This document shows, piece after piece, positions 8,511 through 64,000 of a stretch of DNA of 64,000 nucleotides. The notes beneath the pieces are model-generated. The model was not told the origin of the DNA, made no database searches, and saw only the letters and a list, made by a program, of their open reading frames with translations. The position numbers were made by a program, and so were the translations under genes. The stretch spans positions 83,756-147,755 of the forward strand of contig NW_027271623.1 of the NCBI RefSeq assembly GCF_040938485.1. Direction: 5' to 3'. The DNA comes from Diadema antillarum (taxonomy: Eukaryota). Within the stretch, counting starts at the first letter, position 1, and each line of letters starts with the position of its first letter.

Positions 8511-8551
8511 TCTTTGCCTGTATCTGTGAACTCCTCTTCTCTGTACCCAAG

Positions 8552-20808: not shown

Positions 20809-21053
20809 AAGAGTTTGTTTGCAAAAACCGTTAAGTCCATTTTTGAAGATTTTGAAGTACGGTCTCTGTCATAAAGTACAAAATAATACCTTTTAAATGA
20901 TACATTGGTCACTACATATAAAGGTACATTTGTGAAGTTATGGTCAAAAGAAGCAAAAATTTCTTATTACTCTCTTTATTTTTCGTGACCATTAATCGCA
21001 AATATCTTCATTTGGCAAATATGGACTTGTCGGTTTTTGCAAACAAACTCTTC
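20809..21053. mobile_element. MITE family C (TIR AGAGTTTGTTTGCAAAAACCG), copy 1
   Basis: About 21-bp TIRs, AAGAGTTTGTTTGCAAAAACCGTTAAGTCC ... GGACTTGTCGGTTTTTGCAAACAAACTCTT. About 90 percent identical to the second copy at 43341-43596. Confidence 0.5.
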
Positions 21054-34619: not shown

Positions 34620-34815
34620 CTGTTTCAGGATCTCTCCAGGATAGAGAGGGAAGGGTTCCCGGGCAAGCCTGATCTCCTGGTCAGCATGGCTTAGCTTGAC
34701 CTGACCATTTTCATCCACCATCACCTGACCAGCCTCATTCCTGACGGCAGGGTTCTCCACAATGCAGTAATGCCTGGGAGGCACGGTGATCATCTTCTCA
34801 GGCCCAAAGATGACC
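34620..34815 (-). CDS. MVP: MVP exon 2 ([65 protein letters not shown])
   Basis: Matches human [65 protein letters not shown]. Acceptor tgtcatcag|G, donor CAG|gtgaga. Confidence 0.9.
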
Positions 34816-34834
34816 CTGATGACATAAGTAGTAG

Positions 34835-35260
34835 TACAAGATGATGAAGTGATAGTTACATGTGATGATGTGGTGGTAAGAAATGAAGTAGTCATATGAA
34901 ATAAAGTGGTAGTAAGAGATGATGAAGTGGTAGTAAGAGATGGTGTAGTGGTAGTAAGAGATTATAAGGTAGTAGTAACAGATAGTAAAGTGGTAGAAAG
35001 ACATGATGGAATGGTAGTAAGAAGTGATGGAGTGGTAGTAAGAGATGGAGAAGTGGTAGTAAGAGATGGAGAAGTGGTAGTAAGAGATAGTAAAGTGGTA
35101 GTAAGAGATGGACAAGTGGTAGTAAGAGATGATGGAGTGGTTGGAAGAGATGATGGAGTTGTAGTTAGAGATGGTGAAGTGGAAGGAGAAGACAATGTAA
35201 TGGTAGTAAGAGATGAAGTGGTAGAGAGATGATGAAGTGGTAGAGAGATGATGGAAGTTC
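34835..35260. repeat. 21-bp minisatellite (GTGGTAGTAAGAGATGGAGAA-like units, about 20 copies) in MVP intron 1
   Basis: Period-21 purine-rich tandem array, read directly. The long ORFs on both strands here (VVVRDGE.. / YYHFTIS..) are repeat translations. Confidence 0.8.
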
Positions 35261-35689
35261 AAGATATGATGACATCTCCAGTTCTGTAGCTTGCACATTG
35301 TGAAATGTACATATGTGACAAAATTATGACATTTTGGCATAATATCAAGAGTTTAGAATGGGGAAAAAATCTGCGTAGCTGCAGGCTTGATGTGAGTGGT
35401 AGAAGGATAAACACTTATTCCTCTCTATCTTTATTATGAGAATAAAGCATTTTTGGCTATATCACTATCTTTTGGTGGCACATTCCATGCTACCACATAA
35501 CTCATTTTCATCCCCTTTAAAATCTTAGTTGGTACATCTAGTTTGTCTAACAAATCTATCACATTTTGATAAATATCCAGACATAATGGTTATCTTTCAG
35601 AAGCCATGAGAGATGTCATTTTCTCAAAATGGTAAAACATGTGACTATTGATTCAAAGTATTGACGTTATTGCTTTGGGAATTCCATAC

Positions 35690-43160: not shown

Positions 43161-43340
43161 CGTATTATCACAAAAGACTCAACAAAAAAGAATGTGAAGT
43201 AGCATTTTTCTTGGAATGCAGAAAATATCAAAAGACGATTTGGGACTATTGAATAGCGACGAATATCATCACGAGTGTACTTGTATGTTTGTATATGACA
43301 AGCACAAAGGAAACGGGAGTGTTGAGTCACAAGTACAATT

Positions 43341-43596
43341 GAAGAGTTTGTTCGCAAAAACCGATAAGTCCATTTTTGAAGATTTTGAAGTACGGTCTCT
43401 GTCATAAAGTACAAAATAATACCTTTTAAATGATATATTGGTCACTAGATATGAAAGTACATTTTTGAAGTTATGGTCAAAAGAAGCAAAAATTTTTTTT
43501 ATTATTCTCTTTAGTTTTCTTGACCTTTAATCGCAAATATCTCCATTTGGCAAATACAATTGTATGGACTTATCGGTTTTTGCGAACAAACTCTTC
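43341..43596. mobile_element. MITE family C, copy 2
   Basis: TIR GAAGAGTTTGTTCGCAAAAACCGATAAGTCC ... GGACTTATCGGTTTTTGCGAACAAACTCTTC, flanked by AATT on both sides (candidate 4-bp TSD). Homologous to 20809-21053. Confidence 0.55.
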
Positions 43597-44282
43597 AATT
43601 TGTGTGTATTAGGCGTAATATTGAATTCTCTAGATTTATATTTCCGAGTCTAATTGAGCAAATGTTGTGTATAATCATACACTCCCCTCTAGTAAAAGGC
43701 AAAATACTCTGTCGTTCATATAGGACATAAAATGGAGATCCATTACAACTCATGTACGTAAAAATCCCGCTTCATTCATTCATTTCAAAGAGCAGGATGC
43801 ATATCCCGGTGATTACAAGTGGTCCCGCCTCACATCCCACTGGACCCCATGTATAGAAGACCACGCGCGCGATAAAATGCAGCTGAATATAGGCAATCAA
43901 TCCATCGCTATGTCAAATATAATCATATCATGTGTTGTCATCGAACTGATCAATTCAATATTTGAATCTGTAGACCTATTTCAATGCAATGCTTTTTCCT
44001 TACTTCTCAATCACAGTTCGCGGTAATTAAAGCTCTTTATCATACTGTACCTGCCAATTTAAAGATAATTATCATGGTTTGTTACATTACTTCAAGGATC
44101 TTTCAGATGAAGTTCTTATCATGTTTTCTATATTTTTCTATATTTCTTTCTACAGAGTTTCTTTGTCAAGCACAACAAAAAATATAAAAAAGAACAAGAT
44201 AAAAGGCTAATTTCTGGTGCCCCCTCCGGACAATCGAAATAAAAGGTTACTGTCGAGCGTTGCCATATAGTTATATATATCT

Positions 44283-45341: not shown

Positions 45342-47066
45342 TTATTTTGCCTCAAATATGTATAGTCTGTCTGAAGTGCAGAAAGCTACCTCACCGCTCT
45401 CAAACTCTTGTAGATAGTACCAATTTCGTTTCATTGGTTTTTGTATTTTGAAGTCAGTGATGATACTACTCAGGTGCCCCAAATCTCTCGTGTAGCGATC
45501 GATACTGACGAGATCCTCCTTGAACCTCACCCAGGCTACAATGACTGAATCATCTCGACAAACAGCCACGAGGGGAAACATACCCTTCTTCTTCAAGACA
45601 TTCTCCTTCTTCCCGTCACCATCAAGACACACGACAGTTGAGGAATCTGTCAGTAACAGCTTCCCAGTGGTGCTTGGAAAGGAGAAAAATTGCTGAGGTG
45701 AATATCCATCACATGTTATTTCCCGGATTGCCTTACCACCCTGTGGGGTAAACACCTGGATATTTTTGAGCTTCATATAACCCACGTAGATATTATCGTC
45801 TCTACCCAGAGTGAGACCACCCGGCCCTCCTTCATCGAAACTCATCGTCTCGAACGTGACGTCAAGGTTCCCCCACTGAGGAGTGTACAGCACCATCTTA
45901 TTATTTTTATCACGTACAACACTTCGACCATCAGACAGGAATCCTAGGTTAGCCACACGGACATCCTTTAGCACGGTCTGCTGTAACTTGCCATCATGGG
46001 AGTAAAGATGGATTCCTCCTTTCTCCGATCCCACCGCCATCTTACCGTCTGGTGCACTTGTGATACAGTTCATGCTGCTTTTGACTCCGAGCTGTACGTC
46101 TGCTTTGACATCCCACGTATAATCTTTCAACTCTCCTAGACAAAGTTCATCGACCTTCACGCATCTACGGAATGAAATCTTCTGAGCTCGTTCTGTCACA
46201 CCTCTCAGTGATTGGTCGTCAGGATCATCTCGTCCAAGAAAGCTCTTCAAGTTCTCACACAGTGTGTCGTGTGCAATTAAGGTGTCTTTCTCTAGCGGTA
46301 CCCCCATACCGTTAGTTACCAGCTCTTCCATTGCGTTCATATGACTGATTGTTTGCCGACTCTCTTCCTCCAAGACTTGTAATTCTTTGTCGAATTTTTC
46401 AGACCATCGTTTCACTTGACATTTCAGCACTTCTCTCCTGTCTGACAACACTTGCATGTATTCCTCGAACGTCTTGTCGATGTCATCATTAAGATTTCTC
46501 AGCATAATTATTACTTCATTTCGTTTTGTCTCTATGACCTTCATATGGTTTTCAATTGTTGTTTTCTTTGATTTTACTCTTTCTTTCAACTCCCTGATAG
46601 TTTGAATTAAGTTCTCTTCATGTACTGCTGATTCTTCCAGCTTGTGTCCTTTTTGAGAATGCTCTATCACCCCGCACGTACTGCAAGTGTAGATCCGACA
46701 TCCGGTGCAGAAAAAGTCTTCATCATAATTAGGGTGTTTCGTACACAGTCGTCGCCTCTTACGCGGAACACTTTCCGAACACTTCTCGTCCGTGGGTATC
46801 ATTGAGTGGCTGGTTTTCGCTTCCTCCACGAGAGAACTCAGAGGTATGTTTGTTTGTAACTTATCCACATCTCCACTGGATAGGGACGTTCTTTTCCTGC
46901 ATACAGGGCATGTTATAGTTTGTTGGTTTGGCTGAGTTTGTAAGAAACTTTCCAGACAGTCTTTGCAGAAGGTGTGAGAACATTTCAGTAATTTCGGTTG
47001 GTCGAAGAGTGACAGACATATTGAACACTTCAAATTCTGGCTGCTGATTTGATGAAACGTTTCCAT
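45342..47066 (-). CDS. TRIM-family E3-ligase-like protein with RING (C3HC4), B-box2, coiled-coil and C-terminal NHL-like beta-propeller repeats. 574 aa, CDS uninterrupted.
   Basis: RING CSICLSLFDQPKLLKCSHTFCKDCL...CPVCR. B-box2 CTKHPNYDEDFFCTGCRIYTCSTCGVIEHSQKGH. About 150 aa of heptad-rich coiled coil. C-terminal repeats with NHL signature (DDNIYVGYMKLKNIQVFTPQGG, GIHLYSHDGKL, LGFLSDGRSV). Kozak caccATGG. AATAAA overlaps the TAA stop. Confidence 0.85.
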   Translation of the reverse strand: METFHQISSQNLKCSICLSLFDQPKLLKCSHTFCKDCLESFLQTQPNQQTITCPVCRKRTSLSSGDVDKLQTNIPLSSLVEEAKTSHSMIPTDEKCSESVPRKRRRLCTKHPNYDEDFFCTGCRIYTCSTCGVIEHSQKGHKLEESAVHEENLIQTIRELKERVKSKKTTIENHMKVIETKRNEVIIMLRNLNDDIDKTFEEYMQVLSDRREVLKCQVKRWSEKFDKELQVLEEESRQTISHMNAMEELVTNGMGVPLEKDTLIAHDTLCENLKSFLGRDDPDDQSLRGVTERAQKISFRRCVKVDELCLGELKDYTWDVKADVQLGVKSSMNCITSAPDGKMAVGSEKGGIHLYSHDGKLQQTVLKDVRVANLGFLSDGRSVVRDKNNKMVLYTPQWGNLDVTFETMSFDEGGPGGLTLGRDDNIYVGYMKLKNIQVFTPQGGKAIREITCDGYSPQQFFSFPSTTGKLLLTDSSTVVCLDGDGKKENVLKKKGMFPLVAVCRDDSVIVAWVRFKEDLVSIDRYTRDLGHLSSIITDFKIQKPMKRNWYYLQEFESGEVAFCTSDRLYIFEAK

Positions 47067-47110
47067 GGTGTTTGTCTATTAAAGGAGAAACACAGAGCGG
47101 TAAATATATC
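47067..47110 (-). promoter_or_regulatory. 3' splice acceptor of a 5'UTR intron, 9 nt upstream of the TRIM start codon (gtgtttctcctttaatag|ACAAACACC ATG)
   Basis: A Py-tract plus TAG acceptor read on the minus strand. The same arrangement is conserved upstream of the paralog at 62096-62130. Confidence 0.4.
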
Positions 47111-47578
47111 AACCAATGTGAGCAGAATTAATCGCATGGTTTAATAGAAACGGGAGGATCAATGCCAGACATGCTCTGACATTCTTTGCATTCTGTAAAA
47201 CACAATGAAGCAATGAGGCACAAGTTAGCATAATTGCGTGATTGCCGTTTATCACTTCATCGTGGTGTTATTTTAGGATAAATACTGTATTTTTGGGCTC
47301 AATGATACTGATTTATGGCAGTTCATTTAAGAAAAGGAGGTCACAACCTGTCATAAAATGCTTCATCTTAGAATGAATGTCATATTTTTTATTCTTAATG
47401 AAGACTCTGTGGGATCACATTTCGTAAAAACAGTTCGTAGAAACAAATCGTAGAAATCAAAGCGAAAAGTAAAAAAAAAACAAACCCGCATTTTCTTCAA
47501 GAGTCCAAATTCAATAAAAAGGAAGTCTCGCAAAACGCAAATCAGAAATTGCAAACTTGCTGTCTATATATGTGTATG

Positions 47579-47614
<36 letters not shown>

Positions 47615-47773
47615 CACACATACAACGTAATAATATATTTTTGTTATACAATTGTTTGTATTTGTATTTGCTTCATGACATGTCTTTTTCATGTACAAAT
47701 CGTTTTTTGATAAGGAAATGATAAAAATGAAATAAAATGAAATATATGCGAATCTATGTATATAGTTTGAATG

Positions 47774-47776
<3 letters not shown>

Positions 47777-47816
<40 letters not shown>

Positions 47817-47840
47817 AGAGAGAGAGAGAGGGAGAGAGAG
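47777..47840. repeat. (TA)n followed by (GA)n microsatellite
   Basis: Read directly. Confidence 0.85.
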
Positions 47841-49439
47841 TGCGAGAAGGAGTCCCGACCGCGTACAGAACCAGTGTAGCTCCTTCATTATTTATTCAGT
47901 GCTTTGCAATAAACCACGTTGAACTATAGCTACATCCGTTGAATGCTTCATTTCTCGCACTATATGTATTATATATAATACTGTAAATACACATTTTTTT
48001 TGGTTTCTTTTTCCAACAAAATCACCTAATTTCATTTTTTTGTTGGCCCAGCAATGAAATTCTGTGTCCCGAAAAAAAATAAAAGTAATTATCAATTATA
48101 ATCAAGTGTAAGTTAGCGGGTATTTACAGCTTCAATATTACATAGAATTGAGGTATCACATATTCATATTTATAGCATATTATAGACCTACTTCTATCTT
48201 CGGTAGAACAAACTTGGTTATGGAATCTGACAGTGAAAAAAATTTTGTTTGGCAAAATTTGGCCGTTAAGACATACCATTGGTAGCCGTGATATCTGACA
48301 TTATTGTAGCAGCATCTAGCTTAAATGCACGCAGTTAATAAGGTGCGAGTTTTTCTACCTTTATTTGGACGAGAATTTAAGAGCACATAAAAGTGTTCGA
48401 AATATCGCAATACAACAGAGAGTTGTATTGCGAAAAATACATGGGGTGATTCGAGCATCTAATGAAGGGATGTCTCCTTGAATCCTTACCCTATAGCTGT
48501 ATTTTCAGAGTAGCCAGATTTTCAAAACGTCGATAACACTTCAATTTCAATTTCAAAGCTTATTTCATTTTTCGACAAAACATATATGTTTGACTTCCTT
48601 TGATAACAGAGAACAAGGTAAACAGAACATTGTGAAATGAAAAGACTGTATACAATAATTGAGGACCTTATAATAATTATGCATTGTAGTAAAAAAGAAA
48701 CAGAAGCGATCGAAGTGAAGTACATGTATAACCTTGCTTAGAGCGCGAAAAATGGAGGGACCCACTAAAAAGACAGAGCTAGTAGATTGTGGGCCCCTCT
48801 TGAAAAGAACATCGATGGAAAGATAAATTGAAGCATCGTAAATATAAAAAAAAGAAAGAAGAGGAAGAAGTCTGGAAGCCCACTGAAAATTATAGATTTA
48901 CAAATAAATACACTTTAATACTCGCGAACAAATATGAAACATGACTATAGACAACAAAACAACTACTGAATAAACATTGTCAATATATCATGCTATTTCT
49001 GATGCAATCGCAACGTAACACTATGACTCGTGATACTGTTAAGCGTATCTTTTAGTAGTAACCGGTAACGATGCGAGAGTGTAACATGTACTATATGAGT
49101 GGGGGTCTGTTATGTCTTTTGAACAACGTGCTTCACGTCATTACTTAAATGGCCAAATGTTACAAGTACGAATTCAAGAACAGGCACTACTGCTCGTGAT
49201 AATGATAATGATTATGATAATGATTATGATAATGATTATGATAAAAATGATGAAAATGGTAATGATAATGGTATAATGGCTATATAGAATAGCAAATATA
49301 CACACAGACTTGCACTCATATATTCTCTAAAAATGGATAAATTCAAATTCGTAAATAACTATAAAGGATACATACTGTATTTATAATAATATGTATACAT
49401 AAGAAACATTTTGGTGACGAATATGACCATGCATATTTT

Positions 49440-50160
49440 TCAAGAAGGAGAGGAAAATATAAAGATTAGCCCCCAATTTGTTCCTCACCCACCCCCGGCC
49501 CCACCCAATGTCTCCCATGAACAAAATATAAACTATACAGTCACCACTCTACTTACTCATAGCACCAACTTACTTTATCAATTCTGGTTAAAGAAAAGAA
49601 GAGTTCTTCAAGATTCCTTAGTTTTCGGGGTTGTTTTACCCCTCACCCCCCCCCCCCCCCCCCACCTCACTCCCTCACTCCCGCGGGCCCCAAGTGAGGA
49701 ATGGTGCCCAATTGTACAAAGATATTCTATTATCTTGCAATAATATCTGCTAAGTTTGGTAAAAATCTGACCATGCGCTTTCAAGAAGATAACAATTTGA
49801 AAATTTGGCCCCTATTTGATTCTCAACCCGCCCATGCCCCGATATGCCATGAGCAAAGTTATAAGTACAGTCACCAATCTATTTACTCATAGCACTAACT
49901 TACGAGGGAAGAAGATTTGTAACGATTCTTTAGTTTGGGGGCTTTGTCCAATAGCCCTCACCCCACACCAGGAGCATTCGATCACCCAGTGATGATGCCT
50001 GCCAAGTTTAGGAAAAGTTTGACTGGGCATTTTCAAAAAGAAGAAGAGGAAAATGTTAAATTTGCGCCCCAATTTGGATCCTCTACGGTCCCATAAGGGG
50101 ACACTCCGGGATACGCTGTGAACAAACCTGAAAATACGGTCACCATTGTATAAGCGCTAT
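49440..50160. repeat. Diverged tandem array, about 3 units of roughly 230-270 bp (CCCCAATTTG..CACC..CATG(A/C)(A/G)CAAA.TATAA.TA.AGTCACCA.TCTA(C/T)TTACTCATAGCAC.AACTTAC...)
   Basis: Units recognisable at about 49455, 49775 and 50035, sharing ordered sequence blocks. The ORFs here (49411-49743 etc.) are spurious. Confidence 0.5.
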
Positions 50161-51142
50161 ATTAAAAAGGTCTATCACATCTTGTTCTGTATATACGTAT
50201 ATAGATAGATTTTTAAAGATTCCTTAATGGGATTTTGGCAATAGCTCACTTGAGCTTTTGGCTCAGATGAACTAACAAGAGTCGGTTTTTATATGGTGGT
50301 TATTCTTTGTATTAACAGCCCATAATATGTTGTATAAAGGGCACAACTAACATGCAAAGTATATATAGTGAAGGGGAGTTATGGTTATCATAGCATTAAC
50401 TTATAATCATTACAAAATAATTTCCATGAAATGTTCAGCAAAAATACCAACTATGAAAATTTTGATCATAATACCATGGTGATGCCAATAATGATAACAA
50501 TAGCAATGATGACAACAATGCAGACAATTCAGATTCATCAGCATTAATGTTGTTGATATTACGAGCTGGAACATTCCTTGGCTTGGAAGTGAGTTTTGAT
50601 AGGTTGAAGGTATAGGGTATTATATACTACACATCATGACACATATACAATTTTGAATGACAGAAAGTATCCATAAATGTTCAGTTGCTAAACGGAAAGT
50701 CTTGGGTTAGGAGGAGCTGACGGGGTAAAGGGGTTGGTCATGTTGGTTGCATGAGGCCCATAGGACACGTAGGAGGAACGCAGAGGGCTTCATCTTAGAT
50801 AGTATTTACTTGTTGTTGTTTTCTTTGGGGGGGGGGGGGGGAGGGACAAGATGCAAAAAAAAAAAGAATTGGGGATTTCAAAGTAGTAATAATGATGATA
50901 ACTAGAGTTCTACGAGTAGCTTGCCATCACTGAAGAGTCACCGAGACATGCTACAGCACTGAAGATGAATGAGACGAAAAAAAAAATATATATGAAAAAA
51001 ACTATAATCATGATAATGAACACTATGATATTGGATATACAATCAGCCAGTGGTACTAAAATTTGAGGTTGGAAATTGACTCTAAGACACCTGAGGAAAT
51101 ACTACGCGACAATTAGGCCTACCACATCCCAAAGAAACCTAC

Positions 51143-51144
<2 letters not shown>

Positions 51145-51188
<44 letters not shown>
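51145..51188. repeat. (CA)n microsatellite
   Basis: Read directly. Confidence 0.85.
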
Positions 51189-51195
<7 letters not shown>

Positions 51196-53362
51196 AACAA
51201 ACAGACACACAATAGAGAGTAACGGTTAAGTGTAATTTGTAAACTCGTACATTAAAAAGGTTTGCAAAATAAGCTGCAATATATAGCAGGCCCAGGTTAG
51301 GTACAACGGTGTGTATTAACGTCCCCATGCTTACCATGAAAGGTTATACTTCCGGGTTCAATATCACTGATAAATGCCGATTGATTCATGCGGAGTATTC
51401 ACAAACTGTTGTCAGTTGTTCTTGTAGGATGGCATACTTACGGACGCAGTCAGATTGGAAGGCCCTATGTAGTATATCGTATCACGAAGCACTACCAAAT
51501 GGTCAGACGTTCAGATAGCTATTGGGAGATATCTCTGTTTACGGTCATCTTTCACAGAAGTGGGTATTCCCCACAAGGTGGCGAAGAACACTGCTGTCTC
51601 TTGGTTACTGCGTCTAACAATGTGTCATGAAATCCAAACTAACAATGCTATATCGCCCTCTATAGAGATTTTTTTTTTGTTGCCATAACTAAAAAAAAAA
51701 AAATAGAAATCGTCATCTATTAAGAAAAGTTTTCTTGTTGTTGTTGTTGTTTTATTACAATGGCATTTTCACGGTGAATAATGTGCATTAGAAGCAAGTT
51801 TTCTCACACGCTTGCGACGACTTGAGTATACTGGGATTGCTAGCTTTGGCTATAGCATGACTAGCATTCTCTTTTTATTCGAAATTGTATTTCAGGAAAA
51901 TTTGAGGCTAAAAAATATTATGAAATGAGACTACCTTGATAAACTAACATTCAAACTACAAAAAAAAAATAACACTCAAACGATAACGTGAGATAAATCA
52001 CACGAATGTTCAGAAACTAATGATAGACTGATAGAAAAACTTAAAGGCCATAACTGGGGTCATTGCAAAGTCAGGCACTGTCGTCGAACAACGAAATAAT
52101 CATAACATATGGCAAACCAAAGGTATTCATCCACCTTCGTATGTAAACTGTACCGCATATAATCACTGGTATTTACTGCACTTGAACTGTTTTGGAAATG
52201 CATGATATCACACACCCACACACACATGCGCGCGAGCGCACACACACACACATCGAATTCTGACTCTATTGTATGCTATATCTCTCTTTCATAATGTTAC
52301 ATGTTTTATCACATTGTAGTCTTGTGCTGTTTCACCAATTGGTTTATTACATTTCCAATTTAGTCTTCATTATTATCTTTGTCATTATTGTCGTTCAACT
52401 TCATGCTGTATCGTGTATTCTTTACTTTTGAGTAATGGTAAGCTAGTCAAAGAAATCACATTTTGACCAGTATATATCATATTATATATTCAATATAAAG
52501 GTATCTTTTTGTATCTTGTCCCCAGTCTTGACAAAGGGCAGGAAGCCCGAGAGCTTGAGTAAAGTCACTTGTGAGGATTAAGCAACGTCTTCCGCCTCCT
52601 TACTCTCGTTTACATACACACTCCAAAAAGATGCGACGACTCAGGGGTTCATCATTAGCTGAAGACACACGACTCACACCATTCAATATAAAGCTATATA
52701 TACTGTTACATTGTATATTGATACAAGTGAAGAAGAGTTTACTGAAGATCGGACAACATCACAGAAGTCATAATGATCATTACTGGTTTACTACAGATAG
52801 CAAATTGGTGATATGATATGCCGATTCCTTTATTTGGATGACCCACAAACTGTTGTTACATGTCCATCTTGATAAACTTGATTAAAGTCATGAACATCTG
52901 CTTAATATTGCAAAAATGCACAGTATCTTGAAAGTACAACATTTCACCGAATCCTGCAGTAAAGTAAAATAATTATCATAATTGAATTAAGCGATTTCAA
53001 TTGAACATTTCTTTTTTCAACCTGTCACCCTTACCCCAATATCTGATTTTATTATACAAAACAAGCTAATCACATGAATGTATGCTTACTGCATTTACTA
53101 AAAGAAAACAAACCATATTCTCTACTTAACCATCTAACAAATCATTACCCTTTACCGCCCTAAGTACAACTACCAATTTAACCCCGTTCCCATGCACGTG
53201 AAATATCTCTACACACACCGAACCTACCCCCTGTTCACCTCCATCCACTCACCAAGCAAATTGCACTTCCCCCAGAAAAAAGAATACAAAAACCAACAAC
53301 AAAAGCGAAATTAGAGCAACGTTATCATGTTTTGAGGGGAAAGGATATTACAAGCTTCCTCA

Positions 53363-54046
53363 ATGCCTTCCTCAATGGCCCTCAATTCACCACCTTCAAC
53401 CCGACAGTCATCAGCTCTTGTTTGCAATGTGATAAAGGAACTTCTGAAGAATGGCGACTACATTGAGATGCTCGATGCTGCCATCAGCAAAGCTGTGGAC
53501 AAGGCTTTTGTCAAGCTCAATGACCGCATTGAAGCTCTTGAAGGTCAGATGCATGATCTTCAAACAGACTGTGACAACAAAGCCCACCAAATAACTGTCC
53601 TAAAGAAAGAGATGAGCAAGCAAGCTGACCGCATTGACACTTTGGTTCAAGCACAGTGGGACATGGAACAATACTGCCGGAGAAACTCCATCCGCATATT
53701 TGGAGTGAGAGAAAGAGAAGGGGAAAGCACTGATGACATTCTTTGTGACATCGCCAAGAAAGACCTTGGGCTTGCCATCAATCCTGAAAAGGACATCGAC
53801 CGTAGCCATCGCACGGGAAGAAAGAAGGCATATACAGCTGCACCCAGGCCCATCATAGTCAAGCTGACCTCCTACAGAAAGCGACAAGAGATCTTGAAAA
53901 GAAGAAGACATTTGAAAGGAAGCGGAGTTTCAATCCATGAGGACCTCACAAAGCGAAACGTTGACCTGTTACGCAAGGCATCCCAGCACACGAAAGTGAA
54001 AGTGAAGAAATACCAGCCACAAACGGAAGGACAGTCAAGAAACTGA
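53363..54046 (+). CDS. LINE ORF1p-like protein (227 aa)
   Basis: An N-terminal heptad coiled coil (LDAAISKAVDKAFVKLNDRIEALEGQMHDLQTD..) followed by CRRNSIRIFGVRE...IDRSHRTGRK...RPIIVKLTSYRKRQEILKRRRHLKGSGVSIHEDLTKRN. This mirrors L1 ORF1p (RRNNLRIIGVPE..IQRAHRIGK..RHIIVRFT..LKGKPIRLTADLS). Confidence 0.7.
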   Translation: MPSSMALNSPPSTRQSSALVCNVIKELLKNGDYIEMLDAAISKAVDKAFVKLNDRIEALEGQMHDLQTDCDNKAHQITVLKKEMSKQADRIDTLVQAQWDMEQYCRRNSIRIFGVREREGESTDDILCDIAKKDLGLAINPEKDIDRSHRTGRKKAYTAAPRPIIVKLTSYRKRQEILKRRRHLKGSGVSIHEDLTKRNVDLLRKASQHTKVKVKKYQPQTEGQSRN

Positions 54047-54406
54047 TCAGATGTGAAAGTGACTTAAAGAATTTGTGATCTACAGTTAATTTCATTCACT
54101 AGTGGCCCCAGAATGTAAAATTTTGATTGTAAACATGTAAACACTGTACTGCATTGATATGTATCTTCTTTTGCTTCTATGCATTGTAATATAGTATCAT
54201 CACTGCTGAATTCCTCCTAAAGGTAATAATACATTGTAATCAGGCAATGACTTGTTTCTAAATCTGTTGTTATCAGAAATTTGATTTGGTTATTTTTTTT
54301 TCTTTTGCCCGTTCTAATATCAGTGTATAACTGAGATAAGTTATTGTGATAATTGTATGTGAATATATGTTCTCTTTTATGTTTTATACGTTATATCTTA
54401 GGATAC

Positions 54407-57394
54407 ATGTCTGTAAATAGTAAGTGTGCATTATGTAACAACCAAATACTGCGAGATGGCATTTGTTATACGTGTAAAACCAGGAAGTTAAATCAGAATA
54501 TGCAAAACACGTTAGATGAGGAATGTGTGACAACTACACGATATTACCTTCCAAGTGAATTTAAGAATGAAATGAAACAATATAATACTCCTGCTATGAT
54601 GACTTGTGTTCATTTTAATTGTAGAAGCCTTAAAGGAAATTATGATAATTTCGTTTCTTGTTTAAACTCTTTAGATTTAGATTTGTCTGTTATTGGAGTG
54701 TCGGAAACGTGGATGCAGGACAATGATAATGTGTTATTTTCGTTACCTCATTACAATTTTGTTGGAAAGGGGAGGTCAAATAGGAGAGGTGGAGGTGTTG
54801 GCCTTTTTGTACATAGTAAATGATGTTTTTTTGATGTTTTTAATGAATGTATTGAGTCTGTGTTTATTGAAATAGCCAACTCTCAAAATAATCTTATTGT
54901 AGCTACTGTTTATAGACCCCCTAATCAACCAATTCAGTCTTTTATTGATATGCTACAACCTGTATTCCACAAAATATCTCAAGAAAGGAAACAATGTATT
55001 ATAGTAGGTGATTTTAATGTTGATCTATTGGTTGATATCAATGTGACACATCAATTTTTAGATTTATTCATTTCATCTTCTTTTTCTCCTATGATATTCA
55101 AGCCGACAAGAATAACGAACTCGTCAGCTAGCTTACTCGATAATGTTTTTATCAACCGCTCAGAAAATGTTGTCACAGCTGGTATTCTCATTTCAGATGT
55201 CAGTGATCACTTATCTCCTTTTATTGTGTATAATGGTAGTCGAGTATATAACGATGATGTTAAGCATATATACAGAAGAGTTATTAATGAGGTAAATATA
55301 GTGAAATTTCTTGGTTTGTTACAGTCTGTTAAATGGAATAATCTTGTGGAAGTTCCTACGGTTGATGAGAAATATGAATATTTTATGCGCATATTTTTAG
55401 ATACGTATAATGAATGTTTTGTTTTTAAAAAAGTAAATATCAAGAAAAATAATAATTGTCAAACTTGGTTTACTAAAGAACTGAAAAAGATGTGTCACAA
55501 AAAGTATATATTGTATAAAAAATATTTGAAAAATCCCACTCAATATCGTAAACACATTTACAAGCAATATAGAAATACTGTTAACAATACGATCCGTGCA
55601 GCTAAACGTGCCTATTATCAAAATGTCTTTGACAAAGTGAAGAGTGATTTAAAAGGTACATGGAGAGTAAACAATAATTTGTTGAATAAGAATTGTAAGA
55701 AAGATAGTTGTGATTACATTGAGCATAATGGTGTAGCAATTGATGATAAGAAAAGTATTGCTGATACATTTAATGATTATTTCAGTAGTATTGGAACTAA
55801 GTTAATGAATAATTTGCCGCATTCTTCCTTAGATAAAGATTTCTCACATTTTATGAAAGATAATTTTTCTCAATCTATGTTTTTTACACCAATTAGTGAA
55901 GGAGATATTGTATCTGTTATTATGAGTTTAAGTGCCAACAAATCTCCTGGCCATGATGGCGTTGATTCTTCTGTTTTAAAACGATGTGCCCATCTTATCT
56001 CTTTTCCCTTGTCACATATTTTTAATACTTCAGCTGAACAAGGTATATATCCCACAGATTTAAAATTAGCGAAAGTGATACTCGTATATAAAAAGGGAGA
56101 TAAATATTCATGTTCAAATTATAGACCTATTTCAAATTTGTCAGTTTTTTCTAAAATATTTGAAAAACTTGTTCATGAGAGATTGACAGCTTTTTTAGAT
56201 AAAAACAATATTTTATATAATAAACAATTTGGTTTTAGAGAAGGTTTTAGTACAGATATGGCACTTTTAGAGTTTGTTAATAATGTATCTTCAGCATTTG
56301 AAGAAAAGAAAATAATTCTGGGTTTGTTTTTAGATTTATCAAAGGCTTTTGATTCTATTAATATTTCGATTCTTTTAAAGAAAATGTATCATTATGGAAT
56401 CAGGGGAAATGTTTTACAGTGGTTTGAAAGTTATTTAACAGACAGATAACGATATGTATTTATTGATAATCATTACTCGAAATATAATTGTATAAATGTT
56501 GGTGTTCCTCAAGGTTCTGTATTAGGACCATTGCTTTTTCTGATATATGTAAATGATCTGTGTTTTGTGAGTGATATTTTAAACCCAATTATGTTTGCAG
56601 ATGACACCAATTTATTTTTATCTGGCAAAAATATACATGATATGACAGCATTGTTGAATACTGAACTAAAGAAGGTGTGTGATTGGTTTGTAGTCAATAA
56701 ACTTACACTAAATTATGAAAAAACTGTTTATATGGTATTCAGACCAAACAATGTCAAAATAGATACTAGTTCATTGAATATAATGTTGTATGAAAATAGA
56801 ATAACAGAGGCTCAGAATGTTAAATTTTTAGGTGTCATAGTTGATGAACATTTGAGTTGGAAATATCACATTAATGATATATCTTGTAAAATATCTAAAG
56901 TTATTGGTGTTTTAAATAGGATAAAAAGTTTTTTACCACTGCGCATTTTAGTGAATTTATATAATACTATGATATTACCACATATTTCATATTGTATTTG
57001 TGCATGGGGGAAGTGTGCAATGTATTTATTGAATAGAGTATATATCTTGCAAAAGCGTGCAATCCGTGTTATAACGAATTCATCTTTTTTAACATCTACT
57101 GATTTTCTTTTTAAGAAGTTGAATATGCTCAAAGTAAATGATGTTTATTTGATTCGAGTAGCCAGTTTTATGTATAAACACTCTAAAGGTTATTTACCTC
57201 AAATTTTCCGCAGTTACTTTGCATTTAATAGATCTATAAATTTTTATGAAACCCGAAATTCGTGCAATATGTACGATCCATTTTACCGATATAAGATATC
57301 AAGAAGTAGTATAAGATTTTTAGGTCCATCTCTTGCATCATTCAGAAGAAAATATAAGTTACAGCTTATTTCAAATTATTGTATAAATGTGTAG
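54407..57394 (+). pseudogene. LINE ORF2 (endonuclease + reverse transcriptase) in one continuous frame, interrupted by two in-frame stops (TGA 54821-54823, TAA 56447-56449)
   Basis: APE motifs (VHFNCRSLKGN, GVSETW, GDFNVDL, SDHLSP). RT motifs ([74 protein letters not shown]). All three ORF-track pieces (54353, 54860, 56531) are in frame 2, so there are no frameshifts. Confidence 0.75.
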
Positions 57395-58424
57395 TCCGAT
57401 CTGGCTTAGTGCTACATAATGTCCCGTTTTGTAGACTGTTTTTGTTTTGTAATTTGTGTCTTATTTTGTCCTCTGTAAGTGCATTTAGTACTTGTAATTG
57501 TTTTATGTGCTTGTTGTTAATTATTCTGTAATGTTTTAATTGATAACTGTTAATTATGATATCATTATTTTAAATGACTCTTTTTTTTTGTCTATGGGGT
57601 TCGGCCTCGAAAGGTCAATGGCCTATTGCTGTTCCCCTCCACACTCGCCACATATCCCGAGTCACAAACTCTGGTTTTTGTACATGTGCGTTATTTTGTT
57701 ATTGCTTGTTTTTTTTCTGTGTGTACATTTTTGTTATGCTCACATGAAATCACATTGATTTCATTTTTCTTTTTATGAGATGTGGAAAATAAACTTGAAA
57801 CTTGAAACAAGCTCTGCTTTTTGGCTTCCCTCCGTTTTCAATATTACACAGCAAATAACATGTAAACGTTTTATTTATTTCTTCCTTAAATCAATACATG
57901 GTATTCATAAGATATTTCGACCTGTTAAGAATATGTATTTTAACTTTCATATTAGTGTTCTTTTCTAGTGATAAATTTGTACACTGTCACTCTTTGTTCA
58001 AAATGAATAAACGAAAAGAAGAACAAAAGGCAAAGAAAGCCACACACACACACATACCCTCATACACACATACACACGCACTCGACAATACACACGTACC
58101 CATACAAACACTCGACAAACGACAATATACACATACGCACACACACCAATGCACCTAATCACACTCTGGCATATGGTTACCCGTTTCCTATGACTTACAC
58201 CAAAAACCGACTTTGAGAGAAAAAAAATGAAAATGATAAACAAAATATGTTCTTGACTGAAATATTACAAATTTTAAAAATCATCAAAGCTATCACACAC
58301 TTAATTCCATTTGAACTACCTTGGAAGCCTACAAATATTATCCCTCCAGTCCATGTCCGCCATTAACCCAACTGAATAATCAAAACGCTCAATATGAAAC
58401 TGCCACATCGGCTTAAGTCTAACA

Positions 58425-58466
<42 letters not shown>
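58425..58466. repeat. (CA)n microsatellite
   Basis: Read directly. Confidence 0.85.
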
Positions 58467-58468
<2 letters not shown>

Positions 58469-59957
58469 GACCGAGACATGGAAATTCAAATTCAAATTCA
58501 AATTCAATTTTTTTTCACTTCCATCAAATAAACAAATAAATCATATACAATGTATATGCACAGGACATTTGTAATAATTGCAGAATGTGATTAAACAAAG
58601 TACAAATGAAAAAATGCACAACTATATCTTTTTTATATATAGGCCTACATAAAGCATGTAATACAAGTTAATACAATATTGGGATGGAAATGAAGAGTCC
58701 CACTTAGGGCAAAGCCTGTTCAGTATGGGACCCTCAGAAAATACACAAAACAGCGATATAAAACAAAATTAAACGAACCAATGTCAACTGACACGAAATC
58801 AAAATAACTGGGAAGGAAAAAAAGAAAGAAAAAAGAATAAGAAAAAGAAACTACAGTAAAGGAAACAAAGTTTTCAAAATATATCAGTAATCTAGTAAAC
58901 ATTTGCCAATAAATAACTACAAAGAAGTGAAGAAGAAAATGGTGCCTATAATCAATTTGTGATTGCAAACATCCAATGGCGAACATAAATCACAAGAATT
59001 TATTATGTAGAAGAACCAGAGTAGTGTGAATAAAACAAAATTTCAAGTTATTTTAGCTTACATGCTCCTGTTATGCAAACATACACTGGATGCAACGCGG
59101 AACTCTAAACTTTTTTAATTTCTTGCAGAGAAAGGAAAGAGAAAAATAGAGAGTGCAAACAAGACGACGGCAAATAATAGTGTTTAATGTAACGTGGTAG
59201 ATGGACGATCAAATTGATAGGTTTTATATAATGTGGAGGAAGTCATCATAACGAAACAATGAAATTTCGGTCATGCAACAACGAACAATACACAATAAAT
59301 TGTAAATTTATGCACTGTATAGATCTAAATCATGTCGCTATTGATTTTCACTCGAAGTACAAATAAAATCTCTTTCTAACATGAAACAGTTGATGGATAC
59401 TGTAATGATCTAATTAAGTCTGTACCAGAATATCCATGATAATTATGAATATACAAAGTAAAGCAAACTCTATACCACCAGCACTAGTAACGTCTTGTAA
59501 ACACCAAAGTATAAACGATATTGTATGTAATTATTTCATAACATAATCAAATTGATTTTAAATTTAAACCTTTGAAGTCAACTTACAAACTTACATTTTT
59601 GCTTTGCCACTAATATTCAGAAAATGAGTGAAAACTATCTTACAGTCCTACCATGGTAATCTCCTTATGATAAGTCGCATCACATTTATTATTCATTGTA
59701 TGCTACGAAAAATGAACTTCAGACCTCTTTTACTGCTGTTTATACACTGCTTCTCATTATAATTCAATCACAATGTTTGACAAGCAAAATTTTGATGTGC
59801 ATGACCTCAAACAACTGCTTTATAATAAATAAATACATCAGTGAAATTTGAGGAAATTCGAACAATTCATTCAAAAGTTATATTTTTTGCTTTTTCTCGA
59901 TATGAAGACTACAACAATTAGCTGTCACCGTAAGAGAATGGTACAATAGAAATATTT

Positions 59958-59975
59958 ACAAATATTCGGTTTTGT

Positions 59976-60006
<31 letters not shown>

Positions 60007-60032
60007 GTTTGTTTTTTTTTTGGGGGGGGGGC
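59958..60032. repeat. (GTTTT)n microsatellite running into poly-T and poly-G tracts
   Basis: Read directly. Confidence 0.8.
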
Positions 60033-60220
60033 GGAAGGAGGTTGTTTTTATAGCATAACACTAACTAACCTCCTTCAGAAGACAGGGGGTAATAACCATT
60101 GAGGCAAGTCAGTTCTTAAGAATAATAGAATTTTGTAGAATATGATCTTGTTTTAATATACAGATTGGGCCTACCCGCTTCAGTGCAAGCATTACTCTTC
60201 CATAGGGCCCTGCAATAAAG

Positions 60221-60222
<2 letters not shown>

Positions 60223-60270
<48 letters not shown>

Positions 60271-60290
60271 GTGTGTTTGTGTGTGTTTCT
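60223..60290. repeat. (GT)n microsatellite
   Basis: Read directly. Confidence 0.85.
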
Positions 60291-60895
60291 CTCGTTGAGA
60301 CACCTTTATTGGAACTGATTTGATTTGCTCAAGCATTTCACTCATCAAATATAAGTAGAGTGTAAAACCTAAAATACGGAGGACAATACATTCAGGGAGA
60401 TGAGAATACAGTCCTTTCATGAAATTAAACACAGATCGGGAAGTTGGAGGCTCGTGTGCACGCCCCACTCGTTCGAGGGAGGGCGCTCTTCAGTATATGA
60501 CAAGCTGATGAACTGCACTCCAAGTCGTATCGTGTCACTGCCAAGCCTTTTAACATGTTGCACAGTTCGTATTTTGAGCTCATCACTAACAACAGGTATA
60601 TTCCATTGAAAACAAAAACAGCATCAAAGCCACACATTTTTTTTTTTCATCTGACAACTCAGAACAGTAGCAAAATCAAAAGTGATGGATTGTTAATATT
60701 GCATATACACGTAACCGTTTCATGAAATGATTCTATAATAATGGAACCTACATGTATTGGAGGAGTGATAATTCATAATGAATATAGCAGTTAAGTAGTA
60801 GCCCATCACACGTAAACAGCGGTGCAAGTCATGCATCTTCTTGGTATCACGAGCTTGAAGGAACACATGAAACACTTAAACCGGCAAAAGGAATC

Positions 60896-61279
60896 CAATT
60901 CCATTGATGTTGATATGTTTTAGCCCCCTTTGTTGTAACTCGCCATCAGGGGAGTAGAGATGTATTCCTCCTGTAGACGATCTCACCGCCATCTTACCGT
61001 CTGGTGCACATAACAAGTCATACAAGTCATGTTGTTAGGGGGAGCTCTGTCATGTGCTTTGACATCGTATACTCACTTGTGATATTCCTCATCATAGAGA
61101 GAGAGAGAGAGAGAGAGAGAAAAGTTCATTGAACTTTGAGTATAAAAATCTGGGTTCGTTCTCTCAGTGATTGATTGTTAGGTCAGATTGATTGTCAAAA
61201 AGCTCTTCAAGTTCTCGCACAGCTGCTGGGTCGTGTGCAAACATGACTCTCGATTTAGCTTACTTTCTTCCACTATGAT
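60896..61279 (-). pseudogene. Remnants of the deleted linker/NHL region of the truncated TRIM paralog
   Basis: 60896-61090 aligns to TRIM 45975-46150 (..accgccatcttaccgtctggtgcac.. = GEKGGIHLYSHDGK region). 61196-61250 aligns to 46240-46290 (aagctcttcaagttctc(g/a)cacag). The pieces are out of frame, separated by a (GA)n microsatellite, with stops. Confidence 0.55.
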
Positions 61280-62095
61280 TTATGATTCCGCCTCGAAATT
61301 TCCACACCATTCTTGGACTTGATGTTTCAGAGCCTGTCTTCTAGCTAACAATAGTCGCACATGTTCCTCGTACGCCTTGTCTATATCATCATTGAGCCTT
61401 CTCATCATGTTTGCTATTTCATTGCGTTGTGTCTCTATGACCTCAAGGTGGTTTTCTACGGTTTCTTTCTTTGATTTTACTCTTTCTCTTAACTCACTGA
61501 TATTTTTCGTTAGTTTCTCCTCATGAATGGATGCCCTTTCCAGTTGATGACCAGCTTGCGAGTGCTGTACCATGCCACACGCACCGCAAATGTACTCCCG
61601 GCAATGGTTACAGAAATACTCTTCATCAGCGCTTGGGTGTATCTTACACTTTCGTCGCCTCCTTATGAGAACTTTTCCCGAGAGCACCTCGCTCATGGCT
61701 ACGACTGAGTGGGCAGAGAATGGTGTCCAGATAGAGTGTGTTTTCTCACAAGATGTGCACATATTTTGCCCACAGTCCTGACAGTAGGACACAGCTGGTG
61801 GCTTTTCATGTATGTTACAGAGTGTGCAGGCTGGACTCTTGGTTCTCATTTCTTCCAGGAGAGAACACAGCGATACGTTTGTTGGTAACATACACACGTC
61901 TCCATTTGGTACCGGCGTTCCATTTCTGCATACAGGGCATATAAGAGTTTCTTGGCAGGGCTGAGTTTGAAAGACACGTACCAAACAGTCTTTGCAGAAG
62001 GTGTGTGAACATGCTAACAATTTAGGTTGCTTGAAAAGCGTCAGACAGACAGGACACTCCAAATTCTTGCTGCTGTTTTGATGAAACGTTGCCAT
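61280..62095 (-). CDS. Truncated TRIM paralog with RING, B-box1, B-box2 and coiled-coil. 271 aa; the open frame ends before any NHL domain.
   Basis: RING CPVCLTLFKQPKLLACSHTFCKDCL..CPVCR. B-box1 CTLCNIHEKPPAVSYCQDCGQNMCTSCEKTH. B-box2 CKIHPSADEEYFCNHCREYICGACGMVQHSQAGH. Coiled coil about 75 percent nt-identical to 46380-46700. Kozak caccATGG. It may be an RBCC-only gene or a pseudogene. Confidence 0.65.
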   Translation of the reverse strand: MATFHQNSSKNLECPVCLTLFKQPKLLACSHTFCKDCLVRVFQTQPCQETLICPVCRNGTPVPNGDVCMLPTNVSLCSLLEEMRTKSPACTLCNIHEKPPAVSYCQDCGQNMCTSCEKTHSIWTPFSAHSVVAMSEVLSGKVLIRRRRKCKIHPSADEEYFCNHCREYICGACGMVQHSQAGHQLERASIHEEKLTKNISELRERVKSKKETVENHLEVIETQRNEIANMMRRLNDDIDKAYEEHVRLLLARRQALKHQVQEWCGNFEAES

Positions 62096-62398
62096 GGTGA
62101 TTGTCTATGAAAGGAGAAACACAGAGTGGTAAATGTATCAGTCAATGCAAGCAAGATTAATACCACGAATATACATCGGACAGAAACGGGATGGCAATGC
62201 AATGCTTGCTCTGACATTCTTTGCATTTTGTAAAATTCAGTGAAGCAATGAGGCACAACTTTAGTGTTCGTGTGTGTGAATGCAGTTTCCCCATCTTTAA
62301 CGAATAATGCTTATTTTTGAGAGTGCAGTTCATTAAAATGTAACAGATCACACACTGTTATCTTGTGAGCCTGTCTTAAGAAGCTGCAAGTTAGAATA

Positions 62399-62642
62399 CA
62401 CTCTAAAAACATCCGAGTCAGAACTGACCCGGAACTGGGTCCTTTGGGGTCATACACCGTTCCGGGTAAAAAAATGACTTGGAATTTGGTCATGAGGACC
62501 CCGAATGGGGTCACCCTGACCCAATTCATGACTCTGAATGGGTCATATCTGACCCCATTCCTTGTCATTTCTGACCCGGAACGGTGTATTACCCCAACGG
62601 ACCCAGTTCCGGGTCAGTTCTGACTCGGATGTTTTAAGAGTG
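62399..62642. mobile_element. Foldback Tc1/mariner-like MITE (244 bp) with perfect 44-bp TIRs
   Basis: CACTCTAAAAACATCCGAGTCAGAACTGACCCGGAACTGGGTCC (62399-) with the exact reverse complement ending at 62642. TA flanks both ends (62397-62398 and 62643-62644). The interior is also largely palindromic (CCGGAACGGTGTA / TACACCGTTCCGG). Confidence 0.65.
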
Positions 62643-64000
62643 TAGACGCCACATTATTTACTATTAAAGACTTACAGTAAACCTATAAACAAGTCAAACA
62701 AGAAAGAGATTCGTCACTATATCCAGCACTCTAATGATCACTGCGAATCACCTCTTTGCACCTTCCCTCTTGGTTTGTGTGTGAATCCTAGGCTATAGCT
62801 CAGGGTTTTTTTTTTTTTTTTTGGTCGTTTTGTCACGAGGAAAGGGTTTTTATCTCATCCCTTTGTGATCAAATCCTTAGACCTTGATTTACTTTCAAGG
62901 CAGACAGTGATTGATATCTTTATTCAGATATAATAATACAAAACAGGCAACACCAGTCTTTCTTTTCGGGACATTATTAACTATATATATGGGGATAAAC
63001 TTGTTCAACAGAATTTAGCAAAATCATAGCAATACCAAAAGAACATGGGAGAATTAATTCTATGTATATTATTTTATTGATCATGCCTTTGTAAACCAAA
63101 CTCCGTGTCAGGCAACAGTATCATGCGTATAATGTATGGCTATCGTTTTATATGCTTACCAAGTATGCCGCACTTCCGGGTTCAATATTGCTGATTTACG
63201 TGTGACTCCGAAGTAAGCTACGGCATGAGATCACAACCTGTGTAATCTGTTCAGCCTGTATAACGGTGAGAGTACAAATTAGATTGAATGTGGTCTTACT
63301 CTGTAAACCCAAAAAGAGTGCTGGTAGTAAAAGGTAATAAACAACAAAGATGCATTACGCAGCTCTCACAAAATGGCGATTCGAGCAGCTATCAATATTC
63401 AAAGGGATATGTGTATCCACCGTGACCTTTTCACTGTGACCCTTCAGAGCTGTTATAGCGGGGTTTTCCCCACATTTCGAATACTGTATGTCTTTCTGAA
63501 AATCACAGCACCCAATGCAAGTCGCCTCTTACGGCGAATCCTTTTTTCTTTTCTGATATTGCATGTGGGGAATTTACTGCAATGATTTAAACAAAAGTAC
63601 GGTAAAGGACCTCATGAAAGATAATCTGAGGAAAATAAGACATTTATTTCATTTCATTTCTTTTTTTTAATGATCTCCACTTAACTGTTGGCATGTCATG
63701 TAACACGGCGTACACTATATAAAGATAGCATAAACTTTGCCCCTTTATGAGGGCAACTTTGCACCTTTCTGACAAGTGTCACACTGGATGTACCTTTGAA
63801 AGTGATACTGGGCACCTTTCTGTTCTGAAAGGTACAATTTAAGGTACCTTCCGTAAAGGTGTTCTTAGTGCTAACTTTGCACCTTTACCACTGTCCGTGG
63901 TAAAAGGGCAAAGTCGAACCTATATCTCTTTGAGTGTACGTGCACTCTATTCAAAATGTCACCACAAATTATACTGGATTTTGCTTTTCATTCTATTAAT

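Follow-up and report, generated by a model that had tools for sequence, protein, structure and literature searches.

Where two neighbouring genes of one family each lack a domain that the other retains, the question arises whether they are duplicates that divided an ancestral architecture between them or members that lost their parts independently and happen to lie side by side. Such a locus occurs in the sea urchin Diadema antillarum, in a stretch of 64,000 nucleotides (nt) of contig NW_027271623.1 (NCBI RefSeq assembly GCF_040938485.1, positions 83,756 to 147,755 of the forward strand) that is called the window here at its full length. The window carries two open reading frames (ORFs) of the TRIM class, named for its RING, B-box and coiled-coil (RBCC) module. 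Both are encoded by the minus strand, with 15 kb between them, where an initial annotation of the DNA had placed them, and that annotation regarded them as paired copies with reciprocal domain loss: gene A lacks B-box1, and gene B lacks its C-terminal propeller. The two losses are confirmed below and the pairing is not. It is very likely that A and B are non-sister members of a large family whose losses were independent and of different age, as ordinary birth-and-death turnover produces them, with A remaining an intact gene and B an old casualty.

Family membership and relationship of the two genes

Domain content and sequence similarity place A and B in a very large, echinoid-specific family of predicted TRIM E3 ligases. 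Both proteins (pA and pB) have a C3HC4 RING, at least one B-box and then a coiled coil, the order that is fixed in TRIM/RBCC proteins. Pfam finds RING and B-box sequences in both, in a domain search that the annotation had proposed, and its RING models score above their cut-offs in pA and pB; the single B-box stretch of pA (residues 105-143) scores 23.5 bits, slightly below the cut-off of 24.1, and keeps 8/8 zinc ligands in a pattern check. Relatives of gene A comprise more than 100 proteins from D. setosum and D. antillarum, typically of 610-620 amino acids, and more distant ones (36-41% identity) in Strongylocentrotus and Lytechinus that carry TRIM45-, TRIM2/3-, TRIM71- and TRIM56-like labels. 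The expanded invertebrate TRIM family that the annotation supposed is therefore evident.

Ancestrally, proteins of this family had RING, B-box1, B-box2, coiled coil and an NHL-like propeller of six blades. Of 132 family proteins that were retrieved and compared, 104 have the full architecture, about 14 are without the propeller, seven without the RING and two to four without B-box1, and these domain-loss variants agree with the birth-and-death turnover that the annotation envisaged. Many RBCC-only members of 172-430 amino acids are annotated in Diadema. Conservation towards paralogues is higher in the propeller (72-75% identity) than in the RBCC part (55-58%). Three D. antillarum models of 823-910 amino acids (P0001, P0003 and P0004) are fused, with a propeller followed by a full RBCC-propeller protein or the reverse, which points to tandem arrays and to annotation problems in the family. 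Exact-match look-up of pA and pB in the assembly and protein collections gives no record.

The A and B loci align by blastn in four collinear blocks. The first (A 47226-46811, B 62261-61840; 78.7% identity, E 2e-99) takes in about 165 nt ahead of the ATG and is followed in B by about 127 extra nt (61839-61713) that encode B-box1 and stand opposite a gap in A, so that a complete B-box1 is found in B only, as annotated. The second block (A 46809-46359, B 61712-61262) is 70.8% identical. The third (A 46276-46202, B 61240-61161; 76.5%, E 6e-10) and the fourth (A 46057-45967, B 61009-60919; 84.6%, E 1e-24) join remnants behind the ORF of B to gene A, and uphold the view that the propeller of B has been lost. 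At codon level the genes have a nucleotide identity of 78.4% in the RING; the value for the coiled coil, 72.6%, is a little below the annotated one of about 75 percent.

A and B have a synonymous divergence (dS) of 0.58, compared with 0.06 (B) and 0.12 (A) for the pairs formed with their D. setosum orthologues. pB ranks about 85th among the matches to the RBCC part of gene A, and pA about 96th among the matches to pB. With P0039, which is encoded by a full-length D. setosum gene on the same chromosome at a distance of 33 Mb, pB shares 68% identity, versus 47% with pA. By these values A and B are non-sister members of the family. Because dozens of other paralogues are nearer to each gene than its neighbour is, and the two losses differ in age, the pattern described as reciprocal is a coincidence of adjacency, and this part of the annotation is not retained.

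Loss of B-box1 in gene A

The relative age of the losses can be judged from D. setosum, whose locus L001 (OZ188189.1) is collinear with window positions 63332-39094 and contains orthologues of both genes. The orthologue of gene A, which is also the best match of its protein, is P0002, with 616 amino acids encoded in a single 1851-nt exon (L001 10001-11851) and with B-box1 present. pA is 84% identical to P0002 by BLASTP and 90% identical in an alignment with gaps excluded, and the ratio of non-synonymous to synonymous divergence (dN/dS) is 0.40 at a dS of 0.12. Exactly 126 nt are absent from gene A relative to the P0002 gene, and with them 7/8 zinc ligands of B-box1. Since P0002 and most relatives (104 of the 132) keep this domain, the deletion is derived and arose once this lineage had separated from that of D. 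setosum, and we regard it as recent and lineage-specific. P0006 and P0010, two D. antillarum proteins of 573 amino acids, are also without B-box1, with gap boundaries that differ slightly from those of gene A; loss of B-box1 thus recurs in the family, gene-model artefacts being still possible for those two.

One feature of gene A sits poorly with so simple a history. Its divergence from P0002 is uneven: dS is four-fold higher in the RBCC half (0.21) than in the C-terminal half (0.05), and low divergence extends to the 1.7-kb 3' flank. Gene conversion, deep coalescence and constraint are possible causes. One-sided gene conversion as the source of the high RBCC value was considered and is unsupported, with derived residues split about evenly between both species when judged by eye against the family consensus. 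An exitron origin of the gap, by which a spliced-out segment would have been copied back into the genome, was likewise rejected: the corresponding D. setosum segment has neither GT..AG bounds nor clear microhomology.

Predicted fold and function of gene A

The C-terminal half of pA was modelled with AlphaFold2 (residues 310-574, 66 homologues) at a predicted local distance difference test score (pLDDT) of 94 and a predicted template-modelling score (pTM) of 0.90, with 24 strands. The full-length model consists, behind the B-box, of helices H1 (146-255, 110 residues), H2 (260-277) and H3 (284-295), followed by the propeller at 298-571. In Foldseek searches of the PDB the top matches of the propeller are NHL domains, namely those of TRIM3 (7qrw), TRIM2 (7qrv/7b2r), Mei-P26 (7nyq), Brat and Lin41, with template-modelling scores of 0.70-0.80 (Mei-P26 0.80), E values of about 1e-11 and sequence identities of 12-17%. 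WD40 and other propellers also match, further down the list, as the general beta-propeller fold is common to all. Pfam PF01436 (NHL) has no match in pA at E<=1, and the sole Pfam signal in this half is PF08450 (SGL; E 6e-4), below its cut-off. The annotated NHL domain therefore stands at the level of the predicted fold but not at that of the Pfam model: the C-terminal domain of A is, according to the structural model, an NHL-like propeller that the sequence model does not recognise. Pfam finds no filamin/ABP280 repeat in pA, and the AlphaFold2 model runs from the helices to the propeller without an intervening domain. A profile of the family compared with solved structures has its best match in the RBCC of TRIM3 (8amr, E 4e-27), then in TRIM28, TRIM2, TRIM72 and TRIM56; TRIM25 also matches.

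Gene A is, on this account, an intact gene in which a clean in-frame genomic deletion of 126 nt produced a ligase of RING, B-box2, coiled coil and propeller. A RING/B-box2/coiled-coil layout without B-box1 occurs in many functional vertebrate TRIMs, so A is most likely a functional E3 ligase. By this analogy it most likely still acts as a RING ligase that dimerises through the coiled coil and binds its target with the propeller.

Truncation and age of gene B

Gene B was annotated as RING, B-box1, B-box2 and coiled coil. The RING and both B-boxes are present, but the coiled coil is partial and comprises 84 of the roughly 110 residues of H1. The TAA stop of gene B stands opposite a CAA codon of gene A, which implies a single C>T nonsense change. 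With the AlphaFold2 model of gene A as a guide, the stop falls at the position of residue 230 in A, which leaves gene B without the last 26 residues of H1 and without H2/H3.

Behind the stop, the coding sequence of a longer ancestor can still be recognised. The nearer remnant reads IIVEESKLN, then has a 19-codon deletion, continues as RESCLHTTQQLCENLKSFL and ends at a further stop; its blastn identity is 76.5% to gene A and 87.5% to the P0039 gene. The farther remnant, which derives from propeller blade 1, is translated in a different frame as APDGKMAVRSSTGGIHLYSPDGELQQRGLKHININGIGFL (84.6% identity to gene A by blastn, E 1e-24; 65% by tblastn, E 1.5e-10). The annotation called the remnants out of frame, which applies to the frame-shifted stretch at 60864-61064 but not to that at 61196-61279, which lies in the ORF frame directly after the stop. 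In a blastn comparison with the closest full-length paralogue, the P0039 gene, the remnants span 61243 to 60864, at about codon 428. Homology to the family stops at 60864, so blades 2-6 of the propeller have been deleted, and tblastn finds no further copy of gene A residues 378-574 within the 64-kb window. Compared with functional relatives, gene B therefore bears a nonsense codon, a 19-codon deletion, a frameshift and the loss of blades 2-6. Immediately behind the end of the propeller relic, a segment of 486 bp (60377-60861) is absent from D. setosum. It has no second copy in the window and no Pfam match, and either an insertion in the window or a deletion in D. setosum is possible.

The remainder of the propeller was also sought beyond a retrotransposon at 53356-57807. 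No propeller-like sequence occurs there, and D. setosum has the same truncation without the element. The retrotransposon itself is a degenerate non-LTR (long terminal repeat) element on the plus strand between the TRIM genes and is absent at the syntenic D. setosum site; it has an ORF1-like frame (53363-54046) and endonuclease and reverse-transcriptase frames (54860-56449 and 56531-57394).

The D. setosum orthologue of gene B (L001 935-1750) has the same 271 codons and the same stop, with 15 amino-acid differences and without insertions or deletions (indels), and it is followed by the same blade-1 relic with the same end of homology. Because ORF, stop and truncation are common to both species, the truncation of gene B is older than the separation of the two Diadema species. 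Before that split, CAA would have changed to TAA two-thirds along the coiled coil, small deletions and frameshifts would have accumulated and blades 2-6 would have been lost.

Alternative explanations of the losses

The tandem arrangement makes it natural to ask whether A and B are recent duplicates that divided the ancestral domains by complementary degeneration. Their adjacency, common orientation, 15-kb spacing and about 165 nt of common upstream sequence would fit such an origin. It is nevertheless extremely unlikely, given a dS between the genes that far exceeds the 0.06-0.12 of orthologues, the 75-95 other family members nearer to each gene than its neighbour, the different age of the two losses and the occurrence of like losses in many unlinked members. 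The B-box1 gap of gene A could also stem from an error of assembly, or represent a rare allele that is not fixed in the species, a reading for which a single sequence leaves room and which is favoured by the unusual divergence of the RBCC half from its D. setosum orthologue. A gap of exactly 42 codons, in frame, within an uninterrupted ORF of 574 amino acids is hard to reconcile with it, as are the B-box1-less relatives of 573 amino acids annotated in D. antillarum, and we regard it as very improbable. For gene B, the annotation had raised continuation in frame through an unnoticed intron into a distal NHL exon, so that the gene would not be truncated at all. Nothing was found in favour of this reading. 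A tblastn search with A finds only A itself and the blade-1 relic as propeller-coding sequence in the window, genes of the family hold the entire coding sequence in one exon, and the relic is collinear directly behind the ORF, as in-place decay predicts; a spliced, untruncated gene B is scarcely credible against these observations. Independent losses in non-sister genes remain the preferred account of the locus.

Coding potential of gene B

Is a gene truncated before the species split still a gene? Between the two orthologues there are 26 substitutions, 10 of them synonymous and 16 non-synonymous, and their dN/dS of 0.41 (P=0.03 by site counts, P=0.10 by the empirical spectrum) resembles the 0.40 of the intact gene A. 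In the 1541-column alignment of the locus, 8/8 gap opens fall outside the 813-nt ORF of gene B. The intergenic ratio of indels to substitutions (172 to 658) predicts 6.8 indels alongside 26 substitutions, and none is observed (P=0.001, range 0.001 to 0.0025). Gene B keeps 24/24 zinc ligands, and its upstream block, acceptor-like site and Kozak context are conserved. This pattern of change inclines us slightly towards a gene B that is still expressed or maintained as a propeller-less protein. Such a protein, if made, would be a RING/B-box module without a target domain that may auto-ubiquitinate or may pair and interfere with full-length relatives. The decoy or dominant-negative role proposed in the annotation receives some support from the conservation of the ORF. 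The fuller proposal, that gene B is a conserved, expressed propeller-less protein kept since before the species split and modulating full-length paralogues through mixed coiled-coil dimers, B-box assemblies or a free E3 module, is tentative and on balance doubtful. If it were true, similar truncated members of 172-430 amino acids annotated in Diadema could be 'headless' TRIMs and form a recurrent regulatory layer of the family.

Several observations weigh against maintenance and favour a dead pseudogene, whose 271-codon ORF would have survived by chance in a little-diverged region. The synonymous excess (10/26) is not significant with the empirical mutation spectrum (transition/transversion ratio 1.1). 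The 180 nt past the stop have diverged by 1.7% versus 3.2% in the ORF (intergenic sequence averages 8.2% and varies widely), so the low substitution of gene B is in part a regional property, for which shallow coalescence could be responsible. The probability that 26 random substitutions create no stop in this ORF is 0.29, and all sequence downstream of the stop is clearly decaying. No conserved AATAAA occurs past the stop, polyadenylation signals being uninformative here, and neither similarity search nor exact look-up finds the D. setosum orthologue in the protein collection, so it is probably not annotated as protein-coding. Dimerisation of pB is uncertain on the structural model because the protein has lost a quarter of H1 together with the whole of H2/H3. 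A pseudogene does not readily account for an ORF free of indels beside flanks with eight gap opens, for the intact zinc ligands, for the conserved upstream block and acceptor-like site, or for a dN/dS equal to that of an intact gene, and we place its probability somewhat short of even. A maintained gene B is the reading that we marginally favour.

Upstream elements

The common sequence upstream of A and B includes a block of about 55 nt that is better conserved than the coding sequence between these distant paralogues. In gene B this block is followed by the acceptor-like sequence TTTCTCCTTTCATAG and by the Kozak-like CACCATGG just before 62095. A polypyrimidine tract with AG 10 nt before the CACCATGG start is found in A, in B, in both D. 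setosum orthologues, in the P0039 gene and in the S. purpuratus P0096 gene. The block and the polypyrimidine-AG are likely a shared regulatory element and the acceptor of an intron in the 5' untranslated region (UTR), and the whole protein of the family is encoded in one exon, which probably stands behind that intron. With the whole coding sequence in the last exon, the premature stop of gene B should escape nonsense-mediated decay under the exon-junction rule. About 300 bp upstream of the gene B ATG lies a palindromic element (62397-62644) that resembles a miniature inverted-repeat transposable element, with 77-nt arms that are 94% complementary and 94 nt apart; D. setosum lacks it, and the window contains no further copy.

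Feature positions and neighbouring sequence

Features of genes A and B are collected in Table 1. Elsewhere in the window, large ORFs at 5584-10794 on the plus strand encode a serine-, proline- and lysine-rich, probably disordered protein that is 98% identical to the uncharacterised D. setosum protein P0133 (1186 amino acids) and is labelled 'dentin sialophosphoprotein-like' in Lytechinus; the large exon of this neighbouring gene (8605-10794) matches that of D. setosum at 98% identity. With the best protein matches also in Diadema, this points to a diadematid near to, though distinct from, the D. setosum reference. An ORF of 180 amino acids at 34798-35340 on the minus strand consists of ISYYHF-like repeats and so looks like a minisatellite or tandem repeat, not a gene. 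Two copies, 90% identical, of a 258-bp element that ends in 34-nt inverted repeats occur at 43340-43597 and 20809-21054, and the element is also found at the syntenic D. setosum site (L001 13734-13982).

Table 1. Coordinates of the features of genes A and B in the window
Feature	Position	Strand	Basis and remarks
Gene A coding sequence	45342..47066	-	ORF call and Pfam; 574 amino acids, single coding exon; RING, B-box2, coiled coil, NHL-like propeller
Gene A RING finger (C3HC4), residues 14-56	46899..47027	-	Pfam zf-RING_UBOX E 1e-10, zf-C3HC4 E 5e-9; ligand pattern intact
Gene A junction of in-frame 126-nt (42-codon) deletion removing B-box1, after codon 84/85	46809..46814	-	Alignment to D. setosum orthologue
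Gene A B-box2, residues 108-141	46644..46745	-	Pfam zf-B_box 23.5 bits, E 6e-5; C-x2-H...C-x2-C...C-x2-C...H...H complete
Gene A coiled coil, H1 and H2/H3	46182..46631	-	AlphaFold2 full-length model; family profile against TRIM3 (8amr) and TRIM28 RBCC
Gene A six-bladed beta-propeller, NHL-like, residues 298-571	45354..46175	-	AlphaFold2 and Foldseek
Gene A upstream block, nearly invariant in A, B and D. setosum orthologues	47172..47226	-	Alignments
Gene A polypyrimidine tract and AG, ending 10 nt before ATG; likely 5'UTR-intron acceptor	47076..47089	-	Conservation
Gene B ORF, 271 amino acids	61280..62095	-	ORF call and Pfam; all zinc ligands intact
Gene B RING	62056-61928	-	Pfam
Gene B B-box1	61828-61709	-	Pfam (two B-box stretches, 51.7 bits, E 1e-13)
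Gene B B-box2	61648-61547	-	Pfam
Gene B partial coiled coil, first 84 of ~110 residues of H1	61534-61283	-	Comparison with gene A model
Gene B premature stop TAA	61280..61282	-	Opposite CAA (Gln230) of gene A; also in D. setosum
Gene B remnant 1, coiled-coil/L2 continuation in same frame past stop, with 19-codon deletion, ending at further stop	61196..61279	-	tblastn, blastn
Gene B (TC)n microsatellite in decayed linker	61096..61122	-	Read from sequence
Gene B remnant 2, frame-shifted relic of propeller blade 1 (APDGKMAV..GIGFL)	60864..61064	-	blastn, tblastn
Gene B upstream block homologous to gene A block	62207..62261	-	Alignments
Gene B acceptor-like site TTTCTCCTTTCATAG	near 62104-62118	-	Alignments

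Significance and comparison with known systems

On present evidence the A/B locus is a case of ordinary gene-family birth-and-death. Its value is that of a clean, datable example of turnover in a lineage-specific TRIM family, in which a recent in-frame loss of B-box1 lies beside an older truncated neighbour that keeps an open RING/B-box frame in two species. The practical consequences are mainly for annotation, as the echinoid propeller escapes the Pfam NHL model and loci of the B type are easily missed or mislabelled. If truncated copies of this type are expressed, they are natural candidates for dominant-negative regulators in an immune-related invertebrate family, and the possible maintenance of such an old copy is the sole point that, if true, would add slightly to the significance of the locus.

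A sea-urchin TRIM repertoire has been described in Strongylocentrotus purpuratus, in which about 140 genes are annotated as TRIM and TRIM45-, TRIM71- and TRIM56-like genes are induced in coelomocytes after ultraviolet B irradiation (PMC13043383). That repertoire belongs to the same family as the Diadema genes, with 36-41% identity and the same 'TRIM45/2/71-like' labels. The S. purpuratus paper covers expression and describes no domain-loss variants or Diadema loci (PMC13043383), and a literature search for domain-loss variants of sea-urchin TRIMs found no paper.

TRIM-NHL proteins of class VII (human TRIM2, TRIM3, TRIM32 and TRIM71/Lin41; fly Brat and Mei-P26) have RING, B-box, coiled coil and six-bladed propeller in common with the Diadema family. 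The propeller of the Diadema family differs from theirs in being only 12-17% identical and unseen by Pfam NHL, and no filamin domain precedes it. A filamin/ABP280 repeat between coiled coil and NHL is present in TRIM2/3/71 and absent in TRIM32. Class VII propellers bind RNA or protein with their top surface. The Diadema family also ancestrally has two B-boxes, and it numbers more than 100 single-coding-exon copies per genome, whereas class VII consists of few conserved developmental genes.

In its mode of expansion the Diadema family resembles the finTRIM and bloodthirsty-like TRIMs of teleosts, large lineage-specific families that arose through tandem duplication (PMC2657112, PMC3137616). The two differ in their C-terminal domains: the B30.2/SPRY domain of the teleost TRIMs is their diversifying part, whereas the NHL-like propeller of the Diadema family is its more conserved part. 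Antiviral SPRY-TRIMs have a conservation pattern opposite to that of Diadema, in which the propeller is more conserved than the RBCC part.

For gene B a parallel is TRIM5, whose gamma and delta isoforms lack the SPRY domain and interfere with TRIM5alpha. Like gene B, these isoforms keep RING, B-box and coiled coil and have lost the target-binding domain, and interference by gene B would likewise be through coiled-coil pairing. The TRIM5 isoforms are, however, products of splicing with a complete coiled coil, whereas gene B is a separate locus truncated by a nonsense mutation, with 84 of about 110 H1 residues and without H2/H3.

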